Source: Acidobacteriota bacterium (lineage in GTDB: Bacteria; Acidobacteriota; UBA6911; RPQK01; JAJDTT01). From it: a stretch of DNA of 64,000 nt. The stretch covers positions 4,640,001 to 4,704,000 of the forward strand of contig OZ242374.1 in the NCBI GenBank assembly GCA_965209055.1, given 5' to 3'. The notes below the pieces were generated by a model, which was not told where the DNA came from, searched no databases, and saw nothing but the letters and a program-made list of their open reading frames with translations. Below, in pieces: positions 788 to 26,244 of the stretch. How positions within the stretch are numbered: position 1 is the first letter of the stretch; each line of letters starts with the position of its first letter. The translations under genes were made by a program, and so were the position numbers.

Positions 788-3391
788 ATGTACAATGGGG
801 CCCGGTTCGCCATGACCTGCAAGTTCCGATTTCTCATCATTTTCGGACTGCTCGGTTCCGGCTTCGGGAGGGCCTCCCCTTCAGCGGCGGTCCTGGACGA
901 GTTGGCCCAGGAAGTCCGGACCCTGCTCGAGAACCATTGCGTTCAATGCCACGGTCCCTCGCAGCAGTTGAACGGCCTCCGCCTGGACAGCCGGGAGGGT
1001 GCGTTGGAGGGGGGCTATTCGGGGACCGCCCTGGTTTTGGGTGACGCCGGCGCCAGCACCCTGATTCAGCGGCTGACCAGCGACGACCCCACTGCTCGCA
1101 TGCCCCTGGCGGCGCCTCCCCTCCATCCGGATCAGATCGAGGTCTTGACCCGCTGGATCGACCAGGGCGCCCCCTGGCCCAGGGACGCAACGGTCCGGGC
1201 AGGCTTGGACTCGGTTTCCTCAAAGACGGACCAACACTGGTCGTTCCGGCCCATTGTCCGGACAGCGCCTCGGACGGAGAAGGCCGGATCCTGGGACCGT
1301 TCGCCCGTCGACTCGTTCATCCGTAACCGTCTGGAGCAGGAAGGGTTGGCCCCCTCCGCGATGGCATCCAAGGAGACCCTCATCCGAAGGGTCAGCGTGG
1401 ATCTGACTGGCCTCCTGCCCAGCGTGGAGGAGGTGGAAGTCTTCTTGCGGGACGATCGACCCGACGCCTATGAGCGCTTGGTGGACCGGCTCCTGGCGTC
1501 GCCCCGTTACGGCGAGAAATGGGCCCGTCACTGGCTGGACCTGGCCCGCTACGCCGACAGCGACGGCTACGAGAAGGACCTCCTCCGTCCCCACGCCTGG
1601 CGCTGGCGGCAGTGGGTGATCCAGGCCCTGAACCGGGACCTTTCCTTCGACGAGTTCACCATCGAGCAGTTGGCCGGCGACCTGCTGCCGGAGGCATCCG
1701 TGGAACAACGGGTCGCCACCGGATTCCTGCGCAGCGGCCTCAAGAACCGGGAAGCGGGCGTGCCTCGAGGCCAGGTCCGGTTCGAGGAGACGGTGGACCA
1801 GACCAACACCATGGGCACGGTCTGGCTGGGCCTGACCCTGGGTTGCGCCCAGTGTCACGACCACAAGTACGATCCCTTGAGCCAGAAGGAGTACTACCAG
1901 TTCCTGGCCTTCTTCAATCAGACCCAGGCCCGGGAGATGGACGCACCGCTCCCCGGAGAAATGGAGCCCTACCTGGAAGAGTTCCCCCGCTACCGCCAGC
2001 AGAGAAAAGAGCTTCTGGACAACGGCGAGATCTCGATTCCCCGGCTGCAGGCGCGATGGGAGACCATGCTCCTGGAGGCGGCGGAGCACCCGGGAAAACA
2101 CTTGGACTGGGACGACATTCTGCGGGGCGCCATTCTCAACGAGTTGGACCGGGCCGTCGAGTTGTTTCGTTCGGGTCCCGCGGGCCGCACCTGGCGGGAA
2201 AACGACCGCGTGACCCACTATTTCTTCAAATACACCGGTCCGGAAATCGCCAGGGACGAGGCCCTGAGCGAGAAGCTGAAGGACCTGAAGGGGAAGCTGG
2301 CCGAGCTGGAAACCTCCTTCCCCGACGTGACACGGGCCTATGTGATCCAGGGCATGCGGGCCGCCACCCATATCGCCCTGCGCGGGGACTACCGGGCTCC
2401 CGGTGTCCAGGTCCAACCCGGTACGCCCGCGTGGTTGCCCTCCTTCCACAACGGTAAGGAGCCACCCCGTCTGCGGTTGGCCCGGTGGCTCGTGGATGAG
2501 GACAATCCCCTGACCGCCCGGGTCGCCGCCAATCGATTCTGGCAGGAACTGTTCGGCAGCGGCCTGGTGAGGACCCCGGAGGATTACGGGATCCAGGGAT
2601 CCAAGCCCTCCCATCCGGCTCTTCTGGACTGGCTGGGTTCCGAATTCATGCGCCAGGAGTGGAGCCGGAAGCAAATGCTGCGCCGGTTGGTGACCTCGGC
2701 CACCTACCGTCAGGCCTCCCGGGTCGAAAGGAATTCAGAGGAGATGGATCCGGAGAACGTCCTGCTGGCCCGTCAGAGCCGGCTGCGCCTCTCCGCCGAG
2801 TTGATCCGCGACGCCGCATTGTCGGCAGCCGGCGTGCTGGATTCGCGAGTCGGCGGCAAGAGCGTTCGTCCCCCTCAGCCCGACTGGGTCTCCGAGATCA
2901 CCTACGGCAAGTCCGACTGGGAGTCCAGTTCCGGTGCGGACCGCTTCCGGCGCGGGCTCTATGTGCTGTTCAAGAGAAGCGCCCCGTATCCCCAGATGGT
3001 GAATTTCGATGCTCCCGACGCCAGCGCCACCGTCTGCCGCCGGGACCGCTCCAACACGGCGCTCCAGGCCCTGAACCTGCTCAACGATCCCGTCTTCCTG
3101 GAAGCCGCCCGGTTCCTGGCGGTGCGCACGCTCCGGGAGGCGCCGCCCCGCTGGGAAGACCGCCTCCATCACATCTACCATCTCTGCTTGAGCCGGGACC
3201 CCGGTCCCGCGGAACTCGGCCGTTTCCGCCGGTTCTTTGAGCGCCAGAGGGCGATTTTCCAGGAGGAACCGGAGTCGGTGAAAGACCTTGCGTCCGGGTC
3301 CGGCTCCGATCTGGATGCTCTGCAGGTGGCGTTGTGGACCACCGCAGCCAGGGCCGTGTTGAACCTGGACGAGTTCATCACCCGGGAATGA
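788..3391 (+). CDS. Planctomycete cytochrome c / DUF1549 (PSCyt2) / DUF1553 (PSD1) protein
   Basis: CVQCHG and CAQCHDHKYDP heme motifs; YGEKWARHWLDLARYADS, NPLTARVAANRFWQ and QALNLLND signatures. Confidence 0.9.
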   Translation: MYNGARFAMTCKFRFLIIFGLLGSGFGRASPSAAVLDELAQEVRTLLENHCVQCHGPSQQLNGLRLDSREGALEGGYSGTALVLGDAGASTLIQRLTSDDPTARMPLAAPPLHPDQIEVLTRWIDQGAPWPRDATVRAGLDSVSSKTDQHWSFRPIVRTAPRTEKAGSWDRSPVDSFIRNRLEQEGLAPSAMASKETLIRRVSVDLTGLLPSVEEVEVFLRDDRPDAYERLVDRLLASPRYGEKWARHWLDLARYADSDGYEKDLLRPHAWRWRQWVIQALNRDLSFDEFTIEQLAGDLLPEASVEQRVATGFLRSGLKNREAGVPRGQVRFEETVDQTNTMGTVWLGLTLGCAQCHDHKYDPLSQKEYYQFLAFFNQTQAREMDAPLPGEMEPYLEEFPRYRQQRKELLDNGEISIPRLQARWETMLLEAAEHPGKHLDWDDILRGAILNELDRAVELFRSGPAGRTWRENDRVTHYFFKYTGPEIARDEALSEKLKDLKGKLAELETSFPDVTRAYVIQGMRAATHIALRGDYRAPGVQVQPGTPAWLPSFHNGKEPPRLRLARWLVDEDNPLTARVAANRFWQELFGSGLVRTPEDYGIQGSKPSHPALLDWLGSEFMRQEWSRKQMLRRLVTSATYRQASRVERNSEEMDPENVLLARQSRLRLSAELIRDAALSAAGVLDSRVGGKSVRPPQPDWVSEITYGKSDWESSSGADRFRRGLYVLFKRSAPYPQMVNFDAPDASATVCRRDRSNTALQALNLLNDPVFLEAARFLAVRTLREAPPRWEDRLHHIYHLCLSRDPGPAELGRFRRFFERQRAIFQEEPESVKDLASGSGSDLDALQVALWTTAARAVLNLDEFITRE

Positions 3392-3394
3392 AAG

Positions 3395-4840
3395 ATGACT
3401 CCCCTTCAACTTCGTGAACTTCAAGGCCGGCGGGACTTCCTGCAGAACTGCGCCTCCGGAATCGGCGTCATGGCCCTGGCCGACCTTCTCACCCTGGACG
3501 GACTGACCGCCGCTCCCACTCCAGGCGGCCCGCTTCAACCGGCGGCGCCCCACTTCGCGCCCAAGGCCAAGAACTTCATCTTCATGTTCATGGAGGGTGG
3601 CCCCAGCCAGTACGAGCTCTTCGATCACAAACCGGCCCTGGACCAATACCACGGCAGCCCGCTTCCCAAGTCCCAGACCGAAGGACTGGAATTCGCCTTC
3701 ATCCAGCCTTCGGCGTCGATCCTGGCCAGCTCCGTCCCCTTCCGGCGCTACGGCCAATGCGGCATGGAGCTCTCGGAGCTGATTCCCCACATCGGCTCCT
3801 GCGCCGACGACATCTGCCTGGTCCGCTCCATGCACACCGACTCCTTCAACCATCACCCGGGACAACTGCTGCTCTTCACCGGAACCATTCAGATGGGCCG
3901 TCCCAGCCTCGGCGCCTGGATCTCCTACGGCCTGGGGAGCGAGTCCCGCAACCTCCCCGGATTCGTGGTCCTGACTTCCGGCCCGGGAGGCACCAGCGGC
4001 GGGTCCACCAATTTCGCCAGCGGATTTCTTCCCTCCCACTACCAGGGAACGGTCTTTCGCCAGTCGGGCGATCCGATTCTCTACCTGGGCAACCCGCCCG
4101 GCGTCAGCCGCTCGACCCAGAGGGCGTCGCTGGACCTGATCCGGGATCTGAACCGGCAACATGGGGAGTCCACCGGAGACGCCGAGATCGCCTCCCGCAT
4201 CTCCAACTACGAGCTGGCGTTCCGCATGCAGACGGCGGCTCCGGAGCTGACCGATCTCTCCACCGAACCGGCCGGGATCCGGGAACTCTATGGCCTCGAC
4301 CGCACGGACAAGGCCGAGCGCCAGTTTGCGGCCAACTGCGTGCTGGCCCGGCGCATGGTGGAGCGGGGCGTCCGTTTCGTCCTGATGATGGACCACGGCT
4401 GGGACGACCACACCGAGATCAACAAGAAGATCCCCAAACGCACCCGCAAGATCGACCGGCCTACGGCGGCTCTGCTCAAGGACCTGAAGCAGCGGGGCCT
4501 GCTGGAGGAGACCCTGGTGGTCTGGGGCGGCGAGTTCGGGCGGACACCCATGGTGGAATTGAGGCGGCCAGAGGACGCCAGCTACGCGGGCCGAGATCAC
4601 CAACCTTCCGCCTACAGCCTCTGGATGGCCGGCGGGGGAATCCAGGGGGGCCAGGTGGTGGGGCGAACCGACGACTTCGGGATCCGGATCGAGGAAGACC
4701 CGATCCACGTCCACGACCTGCAGGCCACCCTGCTGCACTGCCTCGGCCTGGACCACACCCGGCTCACCTACCGCTACATGGGCCGAGAGTTCCGCCTCAC
4801 CGACGTGGCCGGCCGGGTGATGGAGAAACTGTTGGCGTAG
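3395..4840 (+). CDS. DUF1501 domain protein (sulfatase-like fold)
   Basis: RRDFL Tat-like N-terminus, FMEGGPSQ, WDDH, GEFGRTP, GRDH, HVHDLQAT; 3 nt downstream of the DUF1553 gene, the usual pairing. Confidence 0.9.
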   Translation: MTPLQLRELQGRRDFLQNCASGIGVMALADLLTLDGLTAAPTPGGPLQPAAPHFAPKAKNFIFMFMEGGPSQYELFDHKPALDQYHGSPLPKSQTEGLEFAFIQPSASILASSVPFRRYGQCGMELSELIPHIGSCADDICLVRSMHTDSFNHHPGQLLLFTGTIQMGRPSLGAWISYGLGSESRNLPGFVVLTSGPGGTSGGSTNFASGFLPSHYQGTVFRQSGDPILYLGNPPGVSRSTQRASLDLIRDLNRQHGESTGDAEIASRISNYELAFRMQTAAPELTDLSTEPAGIRELYGLDRTDKAERQFAANCVLARRMVERGVRFVLMMDHGWDDHTEINKKIPKRTRKIDRPTAALLKDLKQRGLLEETLVVWGGEFGRTPMVELRRPEDASYAGRDHQPSAYSLWMAGGGIQGGQVVGRTDDFGIRIEEDPIHVHDLQATLLHCLGLDHTRLTYRYMGREFRLTDVAGRVMEKLLA

Positions 4841-4855
4841 ACGTTCTGAGATTCG

Positions 4856-4880
4856 GGAGGGGACCTTCCTGTCCCTCCGA
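4856..4880 (+). repeat. GGAG-footed REP-like palindrome
   Basis: GGAG-GGGAC-CTTCCT-GTCCC-TCCGA; partner of the REP interrupted by element E1. Confidence 0.7.
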
Positions 4881-4891
4881 GGCAGTGGGGG

Positions 4892-4930
4892 TAGGAAATC
4901 CGTTGCTCTGTCCAACTGAGCTACGGGATT
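4892..4930 (-). other. tRNA 5'-half-like sequence forming the left att arm of E1
   Basis: Minus strand reads AATCCCG TA GCTC AGTTGGACA GAGC A ACGGA TTTCCTA (acceptor strand, D-arm, anticodon 5' strand, 7-nt loop); no T-arm follows. Confidence 0.75.
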
Positions 4931-4972
4931 GATCCTTTCTTTTCAACCCTTTATCCCAGTTTTTCCCTCGAA

Positions 4973-6058
4973 TCATTTCCCCTTGCTCCCGACCCGTTGC
5001 CTGTTTGTTGCCTGTTGCGTTTGTGAGTCTTCGTTAGCCTGTGCCTCTCGAATGCTCTGGAGCGCATGCGAACTGACGTACCCCGCGTAGCGCATCGTCG
5101 TGCTGATCGCAGAGTGTCCCATCAGCTTCTGCACCGTCCTCACGTCCACGCCCCGCATCAGCCAATGGCTGCAACGGAATCGCCTCAGGTCGTGAAACCC
5201 AACCTTCAATCCCACCCGCTCGGCAGCACGACGTAGAGACTTGTCGGGATTCACCCATCTTGTCCCGGTCCGGCTGTTGACGAAGACGTATGGGATGTTC
5301 AGGTAGCGAACCAGCCCGGCCAGATATCCGGCGGCGTACTTCGAGAGCGGAATCTCTCTCGGTTCGTCGTCCTTGGTGAACTCCACCCACAACATCCGCC
5401 GACTCAGGTCCACCCGGCTCCAGGTGAGCGACAACGCTTCTCCCTTTCGAATCCCCGTCTCGCCGATCACTGCGATCATGGCTTGCATGTAAGGGTTGTC
5501 TATCGCCTCGACCAGGTCGCGGAACTGTTGAACCGCCAAAGGCCGGAAGACCTTCTTCGGCTCCTTTAGTTTGGGGAACCGAACCAGCGGATGTGTGTCC
5601 ACTTCCCCACACTCCAGTGCGTAGGAAAACAGCTTGCTGATGGCCGCAATGTCGCGGTTCACTGTGGCTGGCTGGACCTGTCCCTTCCGTTTCGCGACGT
5701 AGCGGTGGAGGTCCTTGCGCTGGAATTCCTTCAGGGGAATGTTTCCCAGCATGGCGTTGAGGCTCTTGAACGAGAGCGCATAGCGGCGCAAGCAGCGCAG
5801 ACGAGGTTTGCAATACTCCTCGAAAAAACGCTCGTAGAAACTCTGGACCGTCCAGATGGTGCGTTTCCCACCGGCGAGCTCGCGCTTGAGCTGCTTCCAG
5901 GTGCCGTCCAGGATGCTCGACTCGATTCGTGTTTGAAGTGCCTGTGCGCTCCGGTAATTGGGGGCGTACATTCGGAGCCGACCGGATCCGTTCGGCCAGT
6001 ACTTGCTGACGACATACCGCTGTCTCCCCCGGCGGTCCTTCACCTTGTAGATGCCCAT
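4973..6058 (-). CDS. Tyrosine recombinase / phage-type integrase of E1
   Basis: GIRKGE (R), TKDD (K), HDLRR (HxxR), LMGH, TTMRY catalytic set; AAGGAGG RBS. Confidence 0.95.
   Translation of the reverse strand: MGIYKVKDRRGRQRYVVSKYWPNGSGRLRMYAPNYRSAQALQTRIESSILDGTWKQLKRELAGGKRTIWTVQSFYERFFEEYCKPRLRCLRRYALSFKSLNAMLGNIPLKEFQRKDLHRYVAKRKGQVQPATVNRDIAAISKLFSYALECGEVDTHPLVRFPKLKEPKKVFRPLAVQQFRDLVEAIDNPYMQAMIAVIGETGIRKGEALSLTWSRVDLSRRMLWVEFTKDDEPREIPLSKYAAGYLAGLVRYLNIPYVFVNSRTGTRWVNPDKSLRRAAERVGLKVGFHDLRRFRCSHWLMRGVDVRTVQKLMGHSAISTTMRYAGYVSSHALQSIREAQANEDSQTQQATNRQRVGSKGK
4998..5016 (+). repeat. Putative integrase arm-type site (TGCCTGTTTGTTGCCTGTT), left end of E1, inside the int 3' end
   Basis: Identical at 12759-12777 and 24762-24780, near-identical at 21847-21864; each lies 99-109 bp from a 7-bp core. 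Confidence 0.75.
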
Positions 6059-6123: not shown

Positions 6124-6642
6124 TCGGCGTAGGCGTTCAGGTCTTCCAAGGCGAAGCCGCGGTAGCGACTACTACCTCCAGTTTAGGGTGAATCCCTCTA
6201 AGGCGGGTGACAAAACTGTCGTCAAAGTCATTCGTAAAAAATCGCTACGCGAGTTGAAGAAGATCGACGAGGCGCGGCCGGGACTCAAATGCGGCCTGGC
6301 GCGGGGTGCCCTCATTGTCGAGCCATCCGTGCCATCGGTTCCCTTCCTCACCCAGTAATCGGCGCGGTCCTTTCCACAGCGCCCAGGGACTTTTCCACGG
6401 AAAAACGGGCGTAGTTCTCTTCTCTTCAAGTCGGTAAGAGCAAGTAGCTAGTTGCAAATAACCGAACCGGGCGGGATGTGGAAACCATCGGAAAGGGAAT
6501 CCGGACCCGGCAGGGTAATGACGGCTTCGTCACAGGCGCAGCCGGCACAGGATCAGAGCAAAGGAGGAAGAGGCTTTTAAGGGGAGGACAAACAGAGACG
6601 AGGAAGGGGTGCGGAGGCACCCGCTCGACTGAGGGAGGCATT

Positions 6643-7590
6643 CTATCCGTGTGAAGGCACCGGCAAGAGAGTTAGGTAGTCGTGTCCACGTCCAGCGACT
6701 ACGTGGTATTTCCACTCCACCTCTGTTTTCTCTATCTTCACTCTGACGCGAGCACCGAATGGATCACGTCCGGCTATCTCTTCCACTTTACTCATATCGT
6801 CAAATGTGGCCGTCGCCACCGCGCTCTCGCCAAATCTAGATATACCGAAGTAGTGTCCGTCACGCAGTTGGAATTGCTTGTCGCCCATCAATTGGACAGA
6901 GTCCGCATAGATCGCACCGTCGTCGGCTTTGGGAAGAATGATGCCCCATTTGTCGAATTTCACCATCCAAAATTGAGGCTGCTTGGTGTGGATAAAAATC
7001 CAGTCCCTTTTAGGTCCGTCCGTGACCTCACTCATGAACCGCTCGATAAGCCGTTGTTCCGGGTGCATGATCTGCTCGCGCACAAGAGATACAGCCGTGC
7101 CCGCCGCGTAATCGTAACCTCGCCTTCCCAGCAAAGTGAACACCGAGAGGTAGGCAGCCTTCAGCCAACTGATGGTAGCGAAGCGTGGATCTGGCATTTT
7201 GAGTCGTACCTGGAACTCATCAGGCTTGAGAGTGTGCAGCACATGGGGTGAAACTCGGAGACCCGCCGTCCGTATGTCTATTATGTCATCTTCACCCACA
7301 TCAAGCTCAGCCCTGTGCGGGACACCTTTAATCTCCACAGTCGCCGTGGGCGCATGCATCAAAATTGATGCAGCCTGCTCCATTCCCCTTCCCGCCCGTT
7401 CATTACAGGTCCCGCAGGTAAGACAGATGTATCTGCTGGCAGAACTCAGCGCTTTGGGAGGAACATGCTCCAACGTGACGTCAACGCCACGCTTGACGCG
7501 CCCTTTCGTAAAAGGTGTTAGGCAGATCGGACACGCGTCGTTGCCCCGCCCGAACAGACTCATGCGCCGTTCGCTACCGGACCTACGCAT
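6643..7590 (-). CDS. HNH endonuclease domain protein
   Basis: CPIC...TLEHVPPKAL...CLTCGTCNERAG zinc-HNH motif; ATG at 7590 is 2 nt after the upstream stop (ORF track extends it to 7698). Confidence 0.75.
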   Translation of the reverse strand: MRRSGSERRMSLFGRGNDACPICLTPFTKGRVKRGVDVTLEHVPPKALSSASRYICLTCGTCNERAGRGMEQAASILMHAPTATVEIKGVPHRAELDVGEDDIIDIRTAGLRVSPHVLHTLKPDEFQVRLKMPDPRFATISWLKAAYLSVFTLLGRRGYDYAAGTAVSLVREQIMHPEQRLIERFMSEVTDGPKRDWIFIHTKQPQFWMVKFDKWGIILPKADDGAIYADSVQLMGDKQFQLRDGHYFGISRFGESAVATATFDDMSKVEEIAGRDPFGARVRVKIEKTEVEWKYHVVAGRGHDYLTLLPVPSHG

Positions 7591-7592
7591 TC

Positions 7593-7997
7593 TCAATTCC
7601 TTTTCATGTTCTGGACATGGAGATAACTTCCGAGCGCATGGTAGTGTTTTTTCAAGGCCGCCGTATTGAATACTGGCTCCGAGCCTAGCCGCTTCCACTC
7701 CCGTGGTGGACTACCTTCCGTCTCTTCACGGCTATAGGAGAGTGATCTAGACCTATCCGCCATGGGATCCATTTCTAGAAGTCCCGCCATCACCTTCTGT
7801 GGTTGCCATGTCTCGTATTCATCCGGCGGAAACTCTTTCTTGTACGCAATGGCACGGTCGTAGGTAAGCGCCTCAATTGCCATACGCAGTTCCAGCATGG
7901 CGTATTTCAGACGCTCGTTATCGCCAGAGACAAAATCTTCTTGGAAACGCTTCAGATGTCTTCGGGCATCAGTACGAAACCTAGTCCGGGCAAGCAT
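7593..7997 (-). CDS. Hypothetical protein, HEPN-like helical domain, possibly C-terminally truncated
   Basis: YAMLELRMAIEAL helix and HYHALGSYLH motif resemble HEPN-fold proteins; lies between the R-M and HNH genes. Confidence 0.5.
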   Translation of the reverse strand: MLARTRFRTDARRHLKRFQEDFVSGDNERLKYAMLELRMAIEALTYDRAIAYKKEFPPDEYETWQPQKVMAGLLEMDPMADRSRSLSYSREETEGSPPREWKRLGSEPVFNTAALKKHYHALGSYLHVQNMKRN

Positions 7998-8024
7998 GAC
8001 GTTGCGCCGATGGTGGATAGCACA

Positions 8025-10820
8025 TTAGCTCTTCGGCCTTGTCGCCTTGCCGCCATGTACGGATGGCTCCGCGCACCATTGCCGACGCAGCAAGTCCAGC
8101 AAATCCTCTAGGTCCGCATCGAGTTTCAGGACGCTGAGCTTGCCGAACAGCAGTTCACGGTCCAGTTCCTGGCGTGTGTCATCCCGGTAGGCCTCGTTCG
8201 CGGGCAGAAACTTTCTACCCTTGAAGCGGGCGAAAATGTCTCGACAGTGATCCATCTGCGCTTCCGCTAGGGCGCGAGGGTCAAGCACCGGAAGGTCCGG
8301 AATAGCACTGATCTTGATGATTGACCTCCCCGCCTGCTGGCGAGTTCCTTTCCACCAGTGCATTAGCAGCCCAAGTGTCGAGTTGCCCCACAGCAGTAGC
8401 GGAATCTCATGTCGCTCGTTGCAGGGAATTACGTTAGGCCAAGCTCGACCGCCGAGACACTTTTCCGGCGTGAGACACATAACGAAACTCTGGGAATTCA
8501 GCCGGAAATCAATGTTGAAATGCAATCGGGATACCGTGCGGTTCCAGGTGCTGACGGCTTTCTCATCATATCCTGTCCGCACATCCCCGCAAGTGTCCGG
8601 ATGGACGATCAGTCGACGCTCCCTGTTTGCATCGTGGTTCCATAACGCGGGGTAGGTCGGAATCTCATCGTCGCGGATGGCGCGGATGTCGAAAGGTCCC
8701 TCTACAGGTGGCTTGTAGCCATTGATTAGGAGGCTATGAAGACCACGATCCGCGACAGTTCCTAGCTTGATGATAGGAATGTTGATCGCATGGCCCCCTC
8801 GTGGCAGTTGTAGCTGGCCTCTCTGCAATGCCTGTGCAGCACGGACTACACTATCCGATCGTGCACCTGCCGCTCCTGAATCGAAGATCGTACCTTGAAT
8901 TGACGGTTCGGTTCTGGCTGTGACCAGAGCTTCCAAGGTAGATGTAGGACGCGCGTCTAGGTTGATGAACGATACGAGCGGATTCCGTGGAGGCATTTTT
9001 CGTGCGACAACAAGACATTCGGCTATTCCGGTATCCGCCGAGAACGCCGTTTCCGTCGCGCCGGTTGTTGCGATCGCCGCGATGTGAATGTCGTCGTAAT
9101 GTTGATGCAACTTCGTCCGTGCCTTCTCCCATGACTTCCCACTATTAAAGGTAAACGGCAGCACAAGAGCTAAAACTCCACCGTCTTTCAGCTTGCGATG
9201 GGCCAGATCCATGAAGTTCGAGGCGAGACCGGCGTGGCCATGTCCAAATTCAGAACGAGTTTTCTTGAGTTGTTTTGCCATTGCACGCTGTTCGTCTTTG
9301 GAGGTGCCGAAACCTGCGAATGATGGGATCGGGATGCCCGCCCTCTTCGCCGCGTGGTTTGTGGACCGCGTGAACGGCGGGTTCATGATAATCAAATCGC
9401 AGGAACGATTCTTGACTGCGACCGAGTACTTGTGGCTGGTGTCCGCTTCCTTTCCCCCTATCGACTCCGCTCCCGTGGCGAACAGGGAATAAACTTGGTC
9501 GGCATCAAGCAGGTCCAGTGAACCGATATGCGTCTTGCCGCCATCAATGCCATAGGGCATCGTGTAGATGTTCGTCCTGCCGAACTTCTCTCCCGGATGA
9601 ACACTGGACAGCATCGAGCAAGTCAGGTGCGTGGCGGCGGGCATGATGTCCATGCCGATCATCGTGCGTTCCACCAAGCCGGCATGGAGATTCAGGTCGT
9701 TACCTCCCATCCTGCGATACCGGCGGCAGATGGCGCGCTGCACAGCGGAGAGCAGGGCTCCAGTGCCACAAGCAAAATCGGCGATCCGCAAGTTCTCGAT
9801 GGCCCCCTTGTTCGACCAGTCTACTGGCAGACGTTCCACCGCAAGTTCCGCGAGGAGCGTTGCTGACGCAGGCAGCGTGTAGAAAGTGGCCAGGAACTTA
9901 CGGTCGGCAATAAGAGCCTGAAACATTCGCCCCGTGAGTTCGTGGTAGGTGGTCGCGCCCAGGGAGGCCAGCGAAGAGGACGTCTCCAGAAGCCGGTCCA
10001 TCAAGCGCGGCACTAGGGGTGTTTGGATCTCCTCAAGTAACGACGTGGCGATGGAGAAGATCGGCCAGTAGTTGATGGCCAGAATTGCATCCCATGTGTC
10101 CAACAATCTCTCCTTGTTCCTTCCAACTCCGCGCAGGGTGGAGAGACTCGGAATCCCCTCCTGACCCTCGATGGAGGCGTGGAACACAAACGCGGAAGTG
10201 AGGATCGCGGCGACCATCCGGAGGGTCTGGTCGCCTTGGCTTTGCTTGAGCTTTTCGGCAAGACGATGCCGCACGTGTGCTGTGGATTGCTGCGACAGTA
10301 GACCAGCACATGCTTTGACTGTCGTCTCAAGCATCCGCACCCCTTGGTCAAGCTTTCGTTGCGACAGGGACAAAGCCTCGATGGCATCCGCCAACTCATC
10401 CACCGTCCCTTCGAGATAGTCTGACAACGGCCAACGGGAATGGTGACCATCCTTGTTCAGGTGGTGCGTGGCGTAGCGCAGCTTGGAGTTCTCTATGGCA
10501 GCCAGCGAACCGGTCTTCAGTTCGACCGGAAACACGACGGAGAGCGCGCTTTCGATGGTATCCCCGGTGGAATCCAGCTTCCGCCCGAGACGGCCAATGG
10601 CTTCGTTCTCGACCGTCCGGGCGGGATCGAACTCAGTCTCGACAGCGACTGGCTGGCGGGATGGTGTATGGATCAAGATATCGATCTGGCCGGAGCCTCC
10701 CTGCAACACGCCAGTCCGTTCCGCATGGACAGACGTGTCATCCCAGAGCGGGTGGCGTTTCATCAGGGCGCGGGCCAGGGCGCCGTTCGCCTGGGGCTCA
10801 GTATTTCGGGGCAGGCTCAT
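8025..10820 (-). CDS. Fused restriction endonuclease / N6-adenine DNA methyltransferase (type IIG-like)
   Basis: N-terminal IDILI...VAVETEF nuclease-like motif; FYT, DFACGTGALL (motif I), IIMNPPF (motif IV); long C-terminal TRD-like region. Confidence 0.85.
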   Translation of the reverse strand: MSLPRNTEPQANGALARALMKRHPLWDDTSVHAERTGVLQGGSGQIDILIHTPSRQPVAVETEFDPARTVENEAIGRLGRKLDSTGDTIESALSVVFPVELKTGSLAAIENSKLRYATHHLNKDGHHSRWPLSDYLEGTVDELADAIEALSLSQRKLDQGVRMLETTVKACAGLLSQQSTAHVRHRLAEKLKQSQGDQTLRMVAAILTSAFVFHASIEGQEGIPSLSTLRGVGRNKERLLDTWDAILAINYWPIFSIATSLLEEIQTPLVPRLMDRLLETSSSLASLGATTYHELTGRMFQALIADRKFLATFYTLPASATLLAELAVERLPVDWSNKGAIENLRIADFACGTGALLSAVQRAICRRYRRMGGNDLNLHAGLVERTMIGMDIMPAATHLTCSMLSSVHPGEKFGRTNIYTMPYGIDGGKTHIGSLDLLDADQVYSLFATGAESIGGKEADTSHKYSVAVKNRSCDLIIMNPPFTRSTNHAAKRAGIPIPSFAGFGTSKDEQRAMAKQLKKTRSEFGHGHAGLASNFMDLAHRKLKDGGVLALVLPFTFNSGKSWEKARTKLHQHYDDIHIAAIATTGATETAFSADTGIAECLVVARKMPPRNPLVSFINLDARPTSTLEALVTARTEPSIQGTIFDSGAAGARSDSVVRAAQALQRGQLQLPRGGHAINIPIIKLGTVADRGLHSLLINGYKPPVEGPFDIRAIRDDEIPTYPALWNHDANRERRLIVHPDTCGDVRTGYDEKAVSTWNRTVSRLHFNIDFRLNSQSFVMCLTPEKCLGGRAWPNVIPCNERHEIPLLLWGNSTLGLLMHWWKGTRQQAGRSIIKISAIPDLPVLDPRALAEAQMDHCRDIFARFKGRKFLPANEAYRDDTRQELDRELLFGKLSVLKLDADLEDLLDLLRRQWCAEPSVHGGKATRPKS

Positions 10821-10990
10821 GAGCGTCTCCGCGCCATGGACTCACACGCTTCGCCGCAACGGGGACAGTCCATGCGGTTTCCTTGGTAGCCACAGTCCGG
10901 GCAGTGATAAGAGTTCCGGTTCTGGAGCCGATCCAGAGCCAGCTTCCTGATGGTCTCCATTCTCTCCATGTGGATGTCCCAACTGCTCAT
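10817..10990 (-). CDS. Small zinc-ribbon protein (about 57 aa)
   Basis: CPDC...CPRC; its stop overlaps the R-M start codon (ATGA coupling); start codon uncertain (10990 or 10999). Confidence 0.55.
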   Translation of the reverse strand: MSSWDIHMERMETIRKLALDRLQNRNSYHCPDCGYQGNRMDCPRCGEACESMARRRS

Positions 10991-11066
10991 ACAGTTCATT
11001 CTGCCAGAACGGTCTGCCGCGTCCGGAATCATTTCTCGGAGCGGAGCGTCTCTTCTGTGGTTTCTC

Positions 11067-11380
11067 TCCGGGCCTTCCCGCAGGGAGGATTGAGACGGGA
11101 GCGACCCCCCCAGGGGGTGTTGCGCAAATGTGAATTGCGCAACACCCCCGCGCCCGCACCGGGCAGCAAAAAGGGGGGGTCGCTCCCGTCCACCTCCATT
11201 TTCCCCGTGCGGCCACCCGGTGGCCGGAAATGGGGCCGTAACTGACTGAAAGGAAACAGGATCGGGGAACGCGCATTTGTGAATGACCGGGACCGCTTTT
11301 TGTGAATCCACCCCCTTTGTCCCATTCACATCCCGGATCGGGCGCGAGACCCTCTTGACGCACTGCCGAAACGAGCCTCC
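11067..11380. other. Conserved structured non-coding block of E1 (candidate oriT / single-strand origin / ncRNA)
   Basis: Colinear with 24061-24374; perfect 18-bp outer stem (11094-11111/11173-11190) enclosing a perfect 15-bp hairpin (11113-11149) and a 5-bp hairpin; repeated TGTGAAT. Confidence 0.7.
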
Positions 11381-11604
11381 ATTGGCCCTTGCGACTGCCG
11401 AATGCGTTCACCGTCAATCACGACTTGGAAGGAGCGAACTTCCGCCGCTGGTTGCCTCTCGACCGCCCGCTTCAGTGTGGCCGTCACCCCTCCGTAGGAG
11501 TTGAGCAGGGCCGTATCCCCCGTTGGAACGGCGCGTTTGAATCGGACGGCGACAATCGTGTAGCTTGATGAGCCGATTGAGATATCTAGCATTGGGACGC
11601 AGAA

Positions 11605-12660
11605 ATGACTGAGGAACTGTGTATCTGGGCGGTCGACGGGTCGGGGACGGTGGAGCCCCTGTCTCCGCTCAAGCAGATGCCTACAGAGTTGCGATTTGAG
11701 GAGCTGATCGTTCGCAATCCGGAAATGCTAGAACCCGGCCTCCGTTTGGTGGGACGACAGACTCCTACTCAAACCGGTTGGCTGGACCTGCTTGCTATCG
11801 ACACGGACGGTCGTCTGGTCGTCTGCGAGTTGAAACGCGGAATGCTTGCCCGGGAGGCCGTGACCCAAGTCTTGGACTACGCTTCGGACTTGGATGCCAT
11901 GAGTACCGGGGACCTCGCGGAGCACATTTCCGATCGCTCCGGGAATCACGGTATCGAACGGATCGATGACTTCGAGCAATGGTACGCCGACAACTTCGGC
12001 GGGGACGACCTGTCTCGCCTCCTGCCGCCCCGCATGGTGCTGGTCGGATTGGGCGTGGACACCGTAGCCGAACGAATGGCGAGATTCATTTCTGCTGGGC
12101 CGGTCGATATTTCCGTGGTTACATTCCACGGGTTTCGACGTGAAGGGGAGCAACTCCTGGCTCGACAATTGGAGGTCGAGTCAGGACGAACAGAAGTCAT
12201 CCGAAGGCGTCGTTCCGCAACCACGGCCGAAAAGCGTCGCCTTTTGGGGAAATACCTGGTTGACAATGGATACAAGGACCTCTTTGACCGAGTAAATGCC
12301 GATCTTCGCCGACATCTGCCAGAGCAGGGCGTTTGGGAGCAGCCAGGTAGCACGGGGGTCGGATTTTTGCTCAGCGAGCCAGAGGACTCCAAGGTCTGGA
12401 AAACCTACTTCGGCGTGCAAGCTGGATATCTGGGAACGGAAGTGTACAGCGTCAGCGTTTTGCCGCAGGCGATTACATGGGGCGGAGACGGTGCATTTGA
12501 GAGACTCCGTGGTTCCGTCGATCTCGAAGAATGGACACACGGTGGCTATGCCCTCTCCTTCAAGACTCCGGAAGAGTGGGACGAGATTCGACCACAAGTG
12601 CTTGAGTTCGTTCACACCGTCTTGGCGAATCGAACGAACGTGGAAGGGCCAAAAAACTGA
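11605..12660 (+). CDS. NucS/EndoMS-like PD-(D/E)XK endonuclease domain protein
   Basis: EELIVRNPEML...LVGRQ...LDLLAIDTDGRLVVCELKRG...AVTQVLDYA. Confidence 0.8.
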   Translation: MTEELCIWAVDGSGTVEPLSPLKQMPTELRFEELIVRNPEMLEPGLRLVGRQTPTQTGWLDLLAIDTDGRLVVCELKRGMLAREAVTQVLDYASDLDAMSTGDLAEHISDRSGNHGIERIDDFEQWYADNFGGDDLSRLLPPRMVLVGLGVDTVAERMARFISAGPVDISVVTFHGFRREGEQLLARQLEVESGRTEVIRRRRSATTAEKRRLLGKYLVDNGYKDLFDRVNADLRRHLPEQGVWEQPGSTGVGFLLSEPEDSKVWKTYFGVQAGYLGTEVYSVSVLPQAITWGGDGAFERLRGSVDLEEWTHGGYALSFKTPEEWDEIRPQVLEFVHTVLANRTNVEGPKN

Positions 12661-12758
12661 GTTCGACTGCCCGACCTTCGTCACACCGGATCTGGTGACG
12701 GCGGGCCTATATCGCAGAGGAAATAGTTCCGGACCGGCATCGCAGGCTTGAATACTGC

Positions 12759-12892
12759 TGCCTGTTTGTTGCCTGTTCAGCACGTCAAACATAGGGAGTC
12801 AACCACGCTACCGATTCGGCGAAGAACCCGGTAAGCCATTGAAAAAGTTAATGTTTGGTAGTTGTTGACTGTGGGGCTATCGGGATAGGAAA
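12759..12892 (+). other. Right att arm of E1 (arm repeat, 15-bp motif, IHF-like site, core)
   Basis: Ungapped alignment with 24762-24895; TAAGCCATTGAAA resembles the IHF consensus. Confidence 0.8.
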
Positions 12893-19293: not shown

Positions 19294-21609
19294 ATGCGCC
19301 AACTGATTGGAACCGCGGCCTGCCTCCATCTCGCCTGCATGGCGCCGGCGGGAGGGAAGCTGCTGGCCGCGGAAACCGAGCCCGTTGTGTTCCAAGGCCG
19401 GGTCGTGGACCCTCACGGCTATCCCATTCCGGGCGCCGAAGTGAAGGCCCTCCGATCCGGCAAACCGTTAGACGCCCGCTTCACCGATGATCGGGGCGAA
19501 TTTCGCGTCCGCCTGAAGCCCGGACGCTACTCGTTCAGGGTCCGGGTGCCTGGCTTTCAAACCTATGAACAAGCGTGGCTCCTGGGAGATCAGCCTCAGG
19601 AATTGCTCTTGCGGTTGGAGGTGGACACGACCGTCCAGCATCTGGAAGTGCGGGCGAGCGCGCCCCGGATGCAGCATGAACTGGCCATGGGAAGCGGCCG
19701 GATCGACCGGCAGGAGAGCCAGGACCTGGCCGAACTTCTCCGGGGCGAGGCGGGAACCGCCGCGGTCCGGCGAGGACCCATCAACCTGGAACCGAACATT
19801 CGGGGCCTGCAGGAAAACCAGATCGGCACCTTCGTGGACCGGACCCGAACCTTTGCCGCCGGTCCCGCGCGGATGGACTCGGACATGAGTCACGTGAGCC
19901 CCCACGCGGTCCGGTCCATTCGCGTGGTCAAGGGCCCCTACGCCCTGGGATGGGGCGCCGGAGTGCTGAGCGGAATCCAGGTGCAGACCTTTCGGCCCCC
20001 CTTCCACAGCGGCGGCGGCCGCTTTCATGGACGGTTCGGATACCGCTACGGACAGAATGCCGTCAACCAGGACGGGCACGGCCTGTTCTGGGGCGGGAAC
20101 GAATGGTTTCGGCTCCACCTGCTCTACAACCGGCGGCAGGGCAACGACTACCGGGCGGGCGACGGAAGCCGGGTCCCTGGCGACTACAGTTCGGACGACG
20201 TGCATTGGAGCCTGGGATTCAAGCTGTTGCCGGAGCTGGTGCTGGACTACGCGGGCGGCTATCAGGAACAGAATGACATCGACTATCCCGGACGAATCCT
20301 GGACGCCAGCTATTTCTACACCCGTTCCAACGCCGTGGGGTTGACCTGGAATCCGGCCGCGGGAGCCCTCTCCGAGATCCGCGGCCAGGTCTACCTGAAC
20401 TTGAAAGACCACCTGATGAACAACGAGGAGAAGCCGACGGCACGGCCCATGGCCGGACGGAAGCCTCCGTTCGGCCTGCTGGTGGACCTGCCCACGGAGT
20501 CGAACACCATCGGCGGGGACTTCTCGGCCCTGATTGAGAAGGGTCTCTGGGATTGGAGGTTCGGCCTGGACTTCTACAATTCGAATCAGACGGCCACGCG
20601 GTCCATATTCCGGCGCGCTCCCATGGTCCTCCTGTTCCGGGATGTGGTCTGGCCCGATGCCGAACTCAGCGACCAGGGATTCTACGTGCAGATGGTCCGG
20701 GAAGGGGAGCGCACCGAACTGGCGGGGACAGTCCGGATCGACCGGGTCCAGGCCGTGGCCGGCGCCGTTTCCGACTTCTTCGCCGCCAACACGCAAGGCG
20801 GACTCGACCAGGGAGAGACGCACGTCAGTGCCGCGCTGAACGGAAGATGGTCCATGGGCCGGGGCGTGTCCCTGACCGCCGGTCTGGGACGCGCGGTGCG
20901 AACCGCCACGGTTTTGGAACGCTATTCCGACCGATTCCCGGCCACCAAGTTCCAGATCGCCGCCGAGTTCATGGGCGATCCGGCCCTGAACCCGGAAGAA
21001 AGCCTGGAATTCAATCTGGGCAGCAGCCTGGTTCGGGAGACGACCCGCCTCGACCTGGACCTCTTTCACCGCGTGATCGACAACTACATCACCGTGCAGG
21101 CGGATCCCTCCCTGCAAAAACGGCTGCCTTTGAGTCCGCCGGTCGTGTTTCGCTACATCAACGGTTCACAAGCCCGCTTCCACGGAGCCGAATTGACGCT
21201 GGAACAAGAGCTGCCCCCCGTTTTCCGGCTCCGGGGATTTCTCTCCTATGTCTGGGGAATGGACGAGCTGTTCGGCGAACCGATCCTGGGACTGCCCCCG
21301 TTGCAGGGACAGGCGGCTCTGGAGCTGAGCTCGCCCGACCGTCGTTACTGGGTGGATCTGTCAGTGACGCTCGTGGCCAGTCAAAACCGGGTGGCCTCCC
21401 GGAGGTTCGAGCAGGCGACCGGCGGTTACTCCGTCGCCGATCTGAGAGGACGGGCGGCTCTCACCTCCGGATGGACGTTGAAGGCCGGGGTCGAAAACCT
21501 GGGTGATCGGCTCTACAGCAATCACCTGAACTCTCCCAATCCCTTCACCCGCCTCCGCATCCCCGAGATGGGCCGGAATTTCTACCTGGGACTGGAATAC
21601 GAGTTCTGA
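19294..21609 (+). CDS. TonB-dependent receptor, OprC/NosA-like, with N-terminal carboxypeptidase-regulatory-like domain
   Basis: AAGGAGG RBS before ATG 19294; plug motif IRVVKGPYAL, PARMD and HLMNN motifs, C-terminal GRNFYLGLEYEF. Confidence 0.85.
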   Translation: MRQLIGTAACLHLACMAPAGGKLLAAETEPVVFQGRVVDPHGYPIPGAEVKALRSGKPLDARFTDDRGEFRVRLKPGRYSFRVRVPGFQTYEQAWLLGDQPQELLLRLEVDTTVQHLEVRASAPRMQHELAMGSGRIDRQESQDLAELLRGEAGTAAVRRGPINLEPNIRGLQENQIGTFVDRTRTFAAGPARMDSDMSHVSPHAVRSIRVVKGPYALGWGAGVLSGIQVQTFRPPFHSGGGRFHGRFGYRYGQNAVNQDGHGLFWGGNEWFRLHLLYNRRQGNDYRAGDGSRVPGDYSSDDVHWSLGFKLLPELVLDYAGGYQEQNDIDYPGRILDASYFYTRSNAVGLTWNPAAGALSEIRGQVYLNLKDHLMNNEEKPTARPMAGRKPPFGLLVDLPTESNTIGGDFSALIEKGLWDWRFGLDFYNSNQTATRSIFRRAPMVLLFRDVVWPDAELSDQGFYVQMVREGERTELAGTVRIDRVQAVAGAVSDFFAANTQGGLDQGETHVSAALNGRWSMGRGVSLTAGLGRAVRTATVLERYSDRFPATKFQIAAEFMGDPALNPEESLEFNLGSSLVRETTRLDLDLFHRVIDNYITVQADPSLQKRLPLSPPVVFRYINGSQARFHGAELTLEQELPPVFRLRGFLSYVWGMDELFGEPILGLPPLQGQAALELSSPDRRYWVDLSVTLVASQNRVASRRFEQATGGYSVADLRGRAALTSGWTLKAGVENLGDRLYSNHLNSPNPFTRLRIPEMGRNFYLGLEYEF

Positions 21610-21704
21610 GGAGCGGCGACTGGAGCGGCAACTTTCCTGTCGCCGGGAGCGGCGGTTTTCTTACCGCCGATTGGGGGGATACGGAGGGACGGCAGTCCCC
21701 CCTA
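21610..21704 (+). repeat. Cluster of GGAG-footed REP-like palindromes
   Basis: GGAGCGGCAAC-TTTCCT-GTCGCCG, GGAGCGGCGGT-TTTCTT-ACCGCCG, GGAGGGAC-GGCA-GTCCC; between convergent genes. Confidence 0.75.
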
Positions 21705-21741
21705 TACGTTTTTGTTCTACGCTCTTATTCGGGTCGGGGGA

Positions 21742-21780
21742 CTAACAGTCCCGTGCTCTGTCCTGCTGAGCTTGGGGCGA
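21742..21780 (-). other. tRNA 5'-half-like sequence forming the left att arm of E2
   Basis: Minus strand reads TCGCCCC AA GCTC AGCAGGACA GAGC A CGGGA CTGTTAG; no T-arm follows. Confidence 0.7.
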
Positions 21781-21818: not shown

Positions 21819-22907
21819 CTAATCATTCCCCCTATTTCCTGCCTGTTGCCTGTTTGTTGCCGGTCGCATTTGTGAGTCTTCGGTAGCCTGTGCCTTCCGA
21901 ATGCTGGCGAGTGCATGAGAACTGACGTAACCCGCGTAGCGCATGGTCGTGCTGATCGACGAGTGCCCCATCAGCTTCTGCACCGTCCTCACGTCCACCC
22001 CCTGCATCAGCCAATGGCTGCAGCGGAATCGTCTCAGGTCGTGAAATCCGACCTTCAACCCCACCCGCTCGGCGGCCCGGCGCAACGGCTTGTCCGGATT
22101 CACCCATCTCGTGCCGGTCCGGATGTTGACGAAGACGTATGGCGTGTTCAGGTAACGAACCAGCCCGACCAGGTATCCGGTGGCGTACTTCGAGAGCGGA
22201 ATCTCCCTCGGCTCGTCGTCCTTGGTGAACTCCACCCATAGCAGCCTCCGGACCAGGTCCACCCGTTTCCAGGTGAGCGACAACGCTTCGCCTTTCCGTA
22301 TCCCCGTCTCGCCGATCACCGCAACCATGGCTTGCAGGTAAGGGTTGTCCATCGCCTCGACCAGGTCGCGGAACTGTTGAACCGTCAAAGGCCGGAAGAC
22401 CTTCTTGGGTTCTTTGAGTTTGGGGAACCGAACCAGCGGGTGCGTGTCCACTTCCCCGCACTCCAGCGCGTAGGAAAACAGCTTGCTGATGGCGGCAATG
22501 TCGCGGTTCACCGTGGCCGGCTGCACTTGCTTCTTCCTCCGGGCGACGTAGCGGTACAGGTCCTTGCGTTGGAACTCCTTCAGGGGAATGTTCCCCAGCA
22601 CGGCGTTGAGGCTCTTGAACGAGAGCGCGTAGCGACGGCGGGAGCGCATGCGAGGTTTGCAATACTCCTCGAAGAAACGCTCGTAGAAGCTCCGTACCGT
22701 CCAGACGGTGCGATTCCCGCCGGCGAGCTCCTCCTTGAGCTGCTTCCAGGTGCCGTCCAGGATGCTGGACTCGATTCGTGTTTGAAGCGCCTGCGCGCTC
22801 CGGTAGTTGGGGGCGTACATTCGGAGCCGACCGGATCCGTTCGGCCAGTACTTGCTGACGACGTACCGTCGTCTCCCCCGGCGATCCTTCACCTTGTAGA
22901 TGCCCAT
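21819..22907 (-). CDS. Tyrosine recombinase / phage-type integrase of E2
   Basis: Starts MGIYKVKDRR at 22907 after AAGGAGG; full R-K-H-R-H-Y set; about 37 substitutions versus the E1 integrase by hand count. Confidence 0.95.
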   Translation of the reverse strand: MGIYKVKDRRGRRRYVVSKYWPNGSGRLRMYAPNYRSAQALQTRIESSILDGTWKQLKEELAGGNRTVWTVRSFYERFFEEYCKPRMRSRRRYALSFKSLNAVLGNIPLKEFQRKDLYRYVARRKKQVQPATVNRDIAAISKLFSYALECGEVDTHPLVRFPKLKEPKKVFRPLTVQQFRDLVEAMDNPYLQAMVAVIGETGIRKGEALSLTWKRVDLVRRLLWVEFTKDDEPREIPLSKYATGYLVGLVRYLNTPYVFVNIRTGTRWVNPDKPLRRAAERVGLKVGFHDLRRFRCSHWLMQGVDVRTVQKLMGHSSISTTMRYAGYVSSHALASIRKAQATEDSQMRPATNRQQAGNRGND

Positions 22908-22973: not shown

Positions 22974-24050
22974 GGACCGGTGGGACCTGTCCCCCCAGAC
23001 CCCCCAGTGGCGCCAGAACCCGCGCCGGATCACCATTCCGGCGCTGAACCGGGCGCTTTTATTTGTCGCGTCCCATAAGAATGGGTCCCTCGCGCAGGAT
23101 TCCCGCCGCGTCTCTCGCAGGCTTCCCGGTCGGAGCAAATCTGTCCCCGGCCGAGGTGTCGCTTGAAACCCCCTCAGGCGGGAATTCTCGTGAGATCGTG
23201 AAAAAACAAGCCCGCCATCGGGCCTGTGTTGGCCCGCCGCAGCCGGACGAAGGGTTAGGTATAGGCCCCGGAGCGTCGTCCAGAAGCCTCCGGCGCGGCG
23301 CGGGGAAACAGGCAATTCTCAGCACGGGCGCAGCCCGTTAGGTAGTCCGTGAGATCCGGAGCTCGGGCGATCGGCAAGACGCGATCCTGCTTCCGGAACT
23401 CAGCCTGATGGTGAAGACGGCTGACGTCATCCGATCTTCGTGAGTAGAATCTGATGGAAGTGGGTCAATCGAAAGCAGGCCAAGGAGGCAAAGCAGATGC
23501 GCTCAGACCACACCCCCCCCACCATGCTCAGGATGGTCGTTGCCGTCGTCATCGGACTGATTGTGTTCGAGGTGGTGGCGGCGCTGTATCAGGTCGTCGC
23601 CGGGTTCTTTCTGGCGGCTTTCTGACGTCTTGCCGGGTTTTCGGCCCCAAGAGCAATCCAAAATCACGGCGATGGTAGCCGGTCGGGCCAAGGGTTCCAC
23701 CTCGATGGCCAGGCCGACATGGAAAGCGTCCTCGGTTCTGGCGATCCAGGGGAGAAAGTAAATTGCACCGGTGGGGCTGGGGGCTTGAGAGATCGGTGGC
23801 AACACTGAACTGGAGGCAAAACGACGCACCCTGTGGGAAATCTCTGATTTTCCACAGGGTGGGGAGGTTCGTTGAGACGAAGCTCGATCCCTCTTTGGAG
23901 AGTTCTTTGGTGGGTATGTGTCTCTTCGCATCCGGGGGGTTCGGGGGGGCTGGCCCCACCGCTACGAGCGTCAGGTTCACGGTCGGCTTGGTGTGCCGAA
24001 CGGGGTTCAGGCGCACCAGGGGGGTCTGGGGGGACAGGTCCACCCGGTCC
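22974..24050. repeat. About 48-bp imperfect inverted repeats (22974-23021 and 24002-24050) bracketing the E2 cargo slot
   Basis: GGACCGG..GGACCTGTCCCCCCAGACCCCCC...GCGCC.GAACCC present on opposite strands. Confidence 0.8.
23497..23625 (+). CDS. 42-aa hydrophobic membrane peptide (not in the ORF track)
   Basis: MRSDHTPPTMLRMVVAVVIGLIVFEVVAALYQVVAGFFLAAF; AAGGAGG RBS 8 nt upstream; CTGACG-N18-TAGAAT promoter-like sequence at 23421-23450. Confidence 0.6.
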   Translation: MRSDHTPPTMLRMVVAVVIGLIVFEVVAALYQVVAGFFLAAF

Positions 24051-24607: not shown

Positions 24608-24888
24608 GGGAACGTCGCGCCGTTGGAAGCCGGACACCTTCGGCCTCAGGCTGAGTCCTGCGGTGGAGCCAAACGGTCGGCAAAGCCTATCGGATAAGGT
24701 CTCTGAGCCAGGCAACGGAAGGGGGAAAACGGGCGCGGCGGCGTTCAGGAACCGATTCGGCTGCCTGTTTGTTGCCTGTTCAGTATGTCAAACATGGGGA
24801 GTCAACCACCTTACCGGTCCGGCGAAGAACCCGGTAACATATTGAAAACGTTAACGTTCGGTAGTCTTTGACTGTGAGACAGTTGGGA

Positions 24889-26244
<1,356 letters not shown>

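Follow-up and report, generated by a model that had tools for sequence, protein, structure and literature searches.

Just downstream of each of two integrase genes in a window of 64,000 nucleotides from an Acidobacteriota genome (the window being the whole stretch of DNA that was analysed) lies a short sequence that reads like the 5' half of a tRNA, at places where no tRNA gene is found. The locus raises the question of what such a fragment is doing in an element that inserts elsewhere: whether it is a working molecule, a chance resemblance, or the trace of an earlier target. A first-pass annotation of this DNA had proposed that an ancestral integrase recombined in the anticodon loop of tRNA genes and supplied their 5' half, before shifting to REP hairpins.

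Two elements with a tRNA-like arm at the crossover core

The reverse complement of 4892-4930 (element 1) reads AATCCCG TA GCTC AGTTGGACA GAGC A ACGGA TTTCCTA, and that of 21742-21780 (element 2) reads TCGCCCC AA GCTC AGCAGGACA GAGC A CGGGA CTGTTAG. Both stretches have the 7+2+4+9+4+1+5+7 spacing of tRNA positions 1-38, on the minus strand, with a tyrosine integrase gene on the same strand about 75 nt upstream of each. The two elements have common left ends plus a conserved right end of ~134 nt. At the junctions of element 1 the sole common sequence is TAGGAAA, found at 4892-4898 and 12886-12892, and the junctions of element 2 share a 15-nt repeat with CTAACAG inside, at 21742-21748 and 24889-24895. 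Being present at both junctions, the 7 nt that occupy the 'anticodon-loop' position (TTTCCTA in element 1 and CTGTTAG in element 2, read on the minus strand at either end) are the crossover core.

In element 1 the half-tRNA itself, comprising acceptor strand, D-arm and 5' anticodon-stem strand (positions 1-31), occupies 4899-4930 on the minus strand. It is bordered at 4931-4972 (minus strand) by a spacer that is conserved in all copies, belongs to the integrase-proximal attP arm and carries a GATAA..TTGAAAAGAAA motif. The 361-aa integrase (4973-6058, minus strand) matches Pfam PF00589 (E 2.8e-25; 89.5 bits against a cutoff of 27.1), which identifies it as a tyrosine recombinase, and by our own reading of the translation HDLRR, GHS and RYAGY probably hold the catalytic residues. 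The repeat TGCCTGTTTGTTGCCTGTT lies in the 3' end of int at 4998-5016 and recurs as a direct repeat at 12759-12777, within the integrase-distal attP arm (12752-12885); it is nearly invariant among 25 copies. Element 2 has its half-tRNA at 21749-21780 and an integrase gene at 21819-22907, both on the minus strand, the integrase being 90% identical to that of element 1. Its integrase-distal attP arm (24755-24888) contains the same family of repeat at 24762-24780. These arm-type repeats are putative binding sites for the integrase.

The element 1 cargo (6172-12660) appears to carry defence-type genes. Its 8025-10820 segment encodes a 931-aa methyltransferase-like protein (Pfam Eco57I; PADLOC MTase_II, E 4.5e-14), and 11605-12660 encodes a 351-aa NucS-like protein of the PADLOC candidate defence family PDC-S11 (E 2.1e-33). 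The non-integrase part of element 2 held no convincing ORF with a family match; it contains an 84-nt inverted repeat (22974-23057 and 23967-24050, 77% complementary, arms 909 nt apart). Searches with the small backbone ORFs of the elements gave nothing informative in PHROGs and nothing in Pfam.

Both elements belong to a family that is abundant in the window genome, a metagenome assembly of one 6.08-Mb contig with 7.4% estimated contamination; the genomes compared here are metagenome assemblies throughout. It contains 26 full-length integrase copies of 89-100% identity and 30 copies of the conserved right end. The tRNA-like arm is present in all 25 copies with a readable downstream flank, the 26th copy being cut by the contig end, so the spacing of tRNA positions 1-38 noted in the first-pass annotation is a feature of the family. 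Pairing each integrase gene with the nearest conserved right end gave element sizes of 2.6-25 kb, and in every one of the 25 elements the two junctions carry the same 7-nt core, which places the core at the anticodon-loop position throughout, again as first described. The attP reads GGA, core, TCC in 25 of 25, so that an inverted repeat corresponding to the anticodon stem encloses the 7-bp overlap. The cores fall into class A (TTTCCTA, 4 copies), class B (CTGTTAG, 8 copies and a truncated one), class C (CTAACAG, 7 copies) and class D (TTTCCAA or TTTCTAA, 6 copies). Recent movement is indicated by two pairs of copies: c5 and c6, which occupy different sites, show 100% identity across 2794 bp, and c2 and c4 do so across 10.5 kb but for a single insertion.

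Other remains of the family were noted in the same contig. Its end falls inside copy c12 (6076041-6077182), the integrase of which is identical to that of c11. Right ends at 416713, 474732, 484456 and 4708525 have no full-length integrase partner and may be decayed or rearranged elements, and several integrase fragments with internal stops are also present.

Joining the outer flanks of the elements produced GC-rich palindromes whose loop holds the core; the repeat AGGAGGGGGGACTGTTAGTCCCCCCGTCTTC is used by class B and, in the opposite orientation, by class C. Empty sites of both window elements were found in two genomes of the same genus (G402 and G089), where the flanks are contiguous, the hairpin is intact and a single copy of the core is present in its loop. 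These empty sites are intergenic hairpins, not tRNA genes. ARAGORN called no tRNA in the window, in any of 25 reconstructed attP sites or in any of 25 reconstructed attB sites, and none of the 25 copies with a readable downstream flank abuts a tRNA. The sequence past the core is host hairpin DNA and no complete cloverleaf of a functional tRNA gene is formed, in agreement with the earlier observations that no tRNA gene is targeted and that neither host flank nor attP provides a T-arm or 3' acceptor strand. Intact targets in the window genome comprise 79 GGCGATTTCCAATCGCC, 8 GGGGACTGTTAGTCCCC and 1-2 class A sites. The GGA/TCC stems of the other classes are absent from the class A target, so the recognition rule is not uniform.

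Several REP-like hairpin families, such as GGCGGTTAGGAAACCGCC and GGGGGGACTGCCGTCCCC, form dense arrays in the host flanks (21591-21735, with many further intergenic places), and each of nine genomes of the genus contains dozens of matches to the flank of element 2 alone. Several ARAGORN calls in the window genome, among them Gly at 3279847 and Ser at 3354464 and 4203100, were rejected as tRNAs since they are REP arrays, as were two 'tRNAs' that appeared in the reconstructed attB flanks of c7 and c21 at a lowered threshold (ps90). ARAGORN also calls six tRNA-Leu(TAA) genes in this genome, three of which (477237, 1991443 and 2524782) have upstream and downstream flanks in common, so that the whole tRNA-Leu gene is part of another repeated element; these repeated loci have no integrase of the window family within 4 kb.

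Homology to tRNA-Arg and a tRNA-targeting sister element

The tRNA-Arg(TCT) gene of the window genome begins GCGCCCG TA GCTC AGCTGGACA GAGC A ACGGA CTTCTAA. Over its first 32 nt, the 25 arms match at 22-28 positions (mean 25), with 28/32 for element 1 and a value within that range for element 2. As a control, 5000 random 200-nt windows of the genome gave a mean best match of 15.6/32, and 0.4% of them reached 20. Out of 68 ARAGORN tRNA calls, the best match was a tRNA-Arg for every one of the 25 arms. The ancestral letters that have been kept vary by copy: c10 and c11 retain GCGCCC, and c1 retains the D-arm and ACGGA.

Covariance models and tRNA finders, named in the first-pass annotation as a check on its proposal, gave a divided answer. 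When 4892-4930 (minus strand) was cut at the core, the Rfam tRNA model RF00005 matched model positions 1-37 with 15.5 bits (E 0.47 against all families), below the gathering score. The element 2 arm cut in the same way gave no match, uncut 400-nt regions gave none for either element at E<=10, and ARAGORN was negative as described above. Covariance-model support is therefore weak, and the case for a tRNA half rests on homology.

The weak Rfam score for element 1 and the absence of a match for element 2 would also fit a coincidental or convergent likeness, in which an integrase-binding inverted repeat happens to resemble a D-arm; GCTC..GAGC is, after all, a short inverted repeat. This reading is strongly disfavoured and we find it scarcely credible, because the similarity takes in the acceptor strand, the D-loop and the anticodon stem, and because all 25 arms resemble tRNA-Arg specifically. 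Metatranscriptome contigs that align to 4895-4927 at 90% identity or more run on into a T-arm and are real tRNA-Arg sequences of other organisms. Moreover, a sister element has a real tRNA-Arg in register with the arm, as set out below. Another contig from an RNA library (X17; 4899-5216, ~91% alike) bridges the int, arm and hairpin flank of a related element, which cannot show transcription.

The sister element is found in a genome of the same genus (G201, locus L042). Here an integrase 86% identical to that of the window elements is followed, at the same distance and in the same orientation, by an intact tRNA-Arg(TCT) where element 1 has its half-tRNA. The far end of this element lies ~47 kb away and begins with a right end that matches the one of element 1 at 84% identity across 123 nt; beyond it come tRNA positions 1-42 for a second time and then unrelated flank. 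The tRNA-Arg(TCT) locus of the window genome is unoccupied, and it aligns with both junctions: from its upstream flank to position 42 with the far junction, and from position -6 to 2.5 kb downstream with the integrase-proximal junction. The alignment of the empty site thus shows that the G201 element inserted in the tRNA gene and supplies its 5' half, the host 5' half having been displaced. G201 is in this sense a case of reversed, 5'-half-supplying geometry; the window elements have the element-borne half only, with no host tRNA. The duplication in G201 is 48 nt, from tRNA position -6 to 42, within which the exact crossover point can be placed provisionally from the hairpin-targeting relatives, where the duplication has shrunk to the 7 loop positions.

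A conserved sequence of the distal arm, CCGGGTTCTTCGCCGG, was considered as a T-arm relic and rejected, since its loop does not have the T-loop letters and since the tRNA-targeting sister, which receives its T-arm from the host, has this sequence too.

Homologous integrases beside intact tRNAs in the same geometry, which the first-pass annotation had suggested looking for, are thus found in G201 and, with an intact tRNA-Arg in register, at two further loci (L061 and L062). In one genome (G191), the displaced tRNA halves of its two elements are not where simple insertion predicts, which we tentatively attribute to rearrangement.

At L099 (G191:C1:5129500-5135500; 1640-3952) and L062 (619-2562), a tRNA-Arg lies between two related integrase genes. 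One integrase gene is convergent with the tRNA and faces its 3' end, and its ~50%-identical partner stands upstream in the same orientation as the tRNA; a TTGAAAA motif is present on both sides of the tRNA in mirror image. Both tRNA halves at these loci may be supplied by elements, and a tRNA held between two integrases could be a route to the reversed geometry. At L064 (G231:C4:82241-86173), the integrase is 52% identical, and downstream of it lies a tRNA-Arg(TCT) 3' half in reverse complement, spanning the anticodon stem to the acceptor end, with no 5' half adjoining. This may be a mirror-image tRNA-half relic or the remnant of a tandem array.

Sampling 401 genomes of the phylum yielded 40 with an integrase relative at E<=1e-25. 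A tRNA lies within ~160 nt downstream of int at 20 of the 29 new loci examined. It is co-oriented with int in seven cases (Arg-TCT twice, Arg-TCG, Thr-CGT, Arg-CCG, Ser-CGA and SeC) and convergent in 13, with the 3' end next to int as in the usual geometry; the convergent set includes an Arg-TCT next to an integrase of 49% identity. The more distant relatives (30-54% identity) are mostly convergent with a tRNA 3' end. In a maximum-likelihood tree of 55 integrases, from which four partial sequences of <300 aa were dropped, the 36 hairpin-targeting integrases fall without exception into a single clade (ultrafast bootstrap 100, SH-aLRT 95). This clade is sister to the G201 element (100/97; L060 in the tree), and the two together are sister to the co-oriented tRNA-Arg elements L061 and L062 (100/100). 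The hairpin clade is nested within a clade of reversed tRNA-Arg elements, which supports a move of the lineage from tRNA-Arg genes, used in the reversed geometry, to hairpins. Most of the next groups out show the usual geometry; the deeper joins there are weak (51/26 and 89/82) and involve long branches. An earlier step from usual to reversed geometry is plausible, though less secure. The tree does not separate class B from class C; either the core flipped more than once or int and att recombined.

Taken together, the two stretches are very probably decaying 5' halves of tRNA-Arg(UCU) (positions 1-31 plus the anticodon-loop position) within the attP of small integrative elements, whose ancestor targeted tRNA-Arg and which now target REP-like hairpins. 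The ancestor proposed in the first-pass annotation thereby gains support from the G201 element, the empty sites and the tree. Excision, a circular form and binding by the integrase are what the sequences would predict for such elements.

It could instead be supposed that tRNA-Arg is still the target of the elements and that a tRNA-specific integrase entered the hairpins as secondary sites. The core of copy c14, TTTCTAA, is indeed one letter from the tRNA-Arg(UCU) loop CTTCTAA, and tRNA-targeting phages are known to use secondary sites (PMC10865867). However, none of the 26 copies in the window genome is at a tRNA and its tRNA-Arg(TCT) site is empty, whereas all 25 pairs of junctions have the same core, which fits the hairpin loop and not the tRNA-Arg loop. 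The core classes are, in addition, tied to REP families, and the same holds in five other genomes. We therefore regard secondary-site insertion as very improbable.

Conservation of the half-tRNA

The arm is conserved unevenly. Mean pairwise identity among the 25 copies of the window genome is 0.59 for the acceptor strand and 0.63 for the 10 nt of spacer immediately upstream of the arm; it is 0.78-0.84 for the D stem and loop, 0.775 for the 5' anticodon-stem strand and 0.83 for third codon positions of int. The contrast drawn in the first-pass annotation between a conserved D-arm and a diverged acceptor strand is thus borne out. Better conservation of the D-arm than of its neighbours is not predicted by pure decay, and the GGA adjacent to the core is found unchanged in all of 38 arms, which come from six genomes.

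These differences, and the fact that 85.9% of D-stem cells are paired, could mean that the half-tRNA is kept as a working molecule, either a tRNA-half-like RNA with a promoter supplied by the ancestor or a folded single-strand DNA for recombination. An element of the ancestral type must, by inference, drive tRNA transcription from element DNA. Against this, the percentage paired was reached by 33 of 500 shuffles, and covariation in the D-stem was not above controls: its score was reached by 80 of 500 shuffles, and the three pairs changed on both sides were equalled or exceeded in 234 of 500. As to D-stem pairing across family members, on which the first-pass annotation had made its view depend in part, pair 10:25 fails to form in 11 of the 32 distinct arms. 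Positions 8 and 21, which are conserved in tRNA, are changed in whole classes. The conservation of the arm is of sequence, not of pairing.

A promoter was also sought. Scanning 4800-5100 for sigma-70 promoters and terminators returned nothing, with an E. coli-type consensus that says little for Acidobacteriota. The GATAA/GTAA..TTGAAAAGAAA motif upstream of the arm also flanks the tRNA 3' end in relatives of the usual geometry, and it is found on both sides of the tRNA-Arg that lies between two integrases. Its presence beside tRNA 3' ends indicates that it is an attP feature and not a tRNA promoter.

Retention of the half-tRNA as a working molecule is on these grounds improbable. Of the alternative raised in the first-pass annotation, that the half-tRNA is a functional RNA or DNA structure, the RNA part finds no support, the D stem showing no covariation, and a functional RNA from the arm is unlikely; a DNA-level role of the D-arm in attP is possible. 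Our reading is that the arm is a relic, the core-proximal part of which has been retained as attP DNA.

Relation to known systems and proposed mechanism

Zhao and Williams (2002, J Bacteriol 184:859) reportedly described integrative elements whose recombination involves the 5' part of the tRNA gene, in a 'reversed target orientation'. The sister elements at L042/G201, L061 and L062 resemble these in having int upstream of and co-oriented with the tRNA, and the window arms are homologous to the element-borne half of the G201 element. The window elements differ in that they rebuild no tRNA, insert in intergenic REP-like hairpins, are present in 26 copies per genome and carry a half that is decaying. 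Williams, also in 2002, reportedly classified the tyrosine integrases of phages and islands that use the anticodon loop; the half of the tRNA that these bring along is usually the 3' one. With these the window elements share PF00589, an overlap of 7 nt enclosed by a short inverted repeat, and an attP that has arm-type repeats on either side; in contrast, they carry the opposite half of the gene, have no tRNA target, and show attB/attP identity that can be down to as few as 7 nt. PMC6563490 gives recombination in the 3'-distal part of tRNA genes as typical and reversed use of the 5' part as known but rare. For the actinobacteriophages with tRNA-dependent lysogeny (PMC10865867), the target is still a host tRNA gene, one that is destroyed on integration and complemented by a complete phage tRNA, whereas the target of the window elements is not a tRNA and the element carries a non-functional half only.

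Single-strand recombination of the integron type is a further comparison, and here the hairpin targets of the window family fit ordinary double-strand core sites too. Multi-copy insertion into repeated extragenic palindromes is known from REP-targeting insertion sequences and REP/RAYT systems, which use DDE, DEDD or HUH enzymes; the window family differs in using a lambda-type tyrosine integrase with attP arms. Thus tRNA integrases, reversed geometry and REP-targeting insertion sequences are each already known. A full-text literature search, with most subscription journals outside its scope, returned no report of a tyrosine-integrase island family at REPs, and within the same scope no account of a tRNA-derived integrase lineage that moved to REP hairpins and multiplied there with a decaying tRNA half.

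The family would accordingly capture a change of target class by a tRNA-specific integrase, with intermediates in sister genomes. The series would run from the usual 3'-half geometry through the rare 5'-half geometry at tRNA-Arg to hairpins that mimic an anticodon arm, the hairpin step being followed by expansion to 26 copies per genome with variable cargo that includes defence-type genes. Such a history would explain tRNA fragments in attP sites that have no tRNA target, which matters for island-finding software based on tRNA fragments. From the short cores, which are specific to each class, the crossover can moreover be mapped to the anticodon-loop position with no experiment, and these cores suggest that overlap identity and a GC palindrome are enough for targeting, a point of relevance to integrase engineering.

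Mechanistically, the integrase would bind the short inverted repeat around the core, GGA-N7-TCC in attP and the hairpin stems in attB, with attB read as a double-stranded palindrome. Strand exchange would then take place within the 7-bp overlap, as it formerly did in the anticodon stem-loop. With overlap identity setting the target, a change of core would redirect the element to another REP family or flip its orientation. The tRNA half would no longer yield a tRNA; its D-arm and GGA would most likely serve as core-proximal attP DNA, for integrase contact or spacing, and the acceptor strand would drift freely. More tentatively, a tRNA integrase may have turned into a multi-copy transposon-like element with an evolvable 7-nt 'address', with the D-arm a required integrase contact and not a fossil. 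As REP hairpins resemble the anticodon stem-loop, changes of one letter at a time would lead from the tRNA-Arg loop to the cores observed, at least 10 in number and including CTAACAG, the reverse complement of CTGTTAG; such changes would open new REP families to the element or reverse its orientation. If the 'address' reading is true, the choice of target would be largely programmable through the overlap sequence.

The observed cores surround the tRNA-Arg loop sequence CTTCTAA at short distances. TTTCTAA differs from it by one change; TTTCCAA, TTTCTAG, CTTCCAG and CTTTTAG by two; and TTTCCTA, CTGTTAG and CTTTCAG by three. This cloud of cores suggests that retargeting proceeded stepwise.
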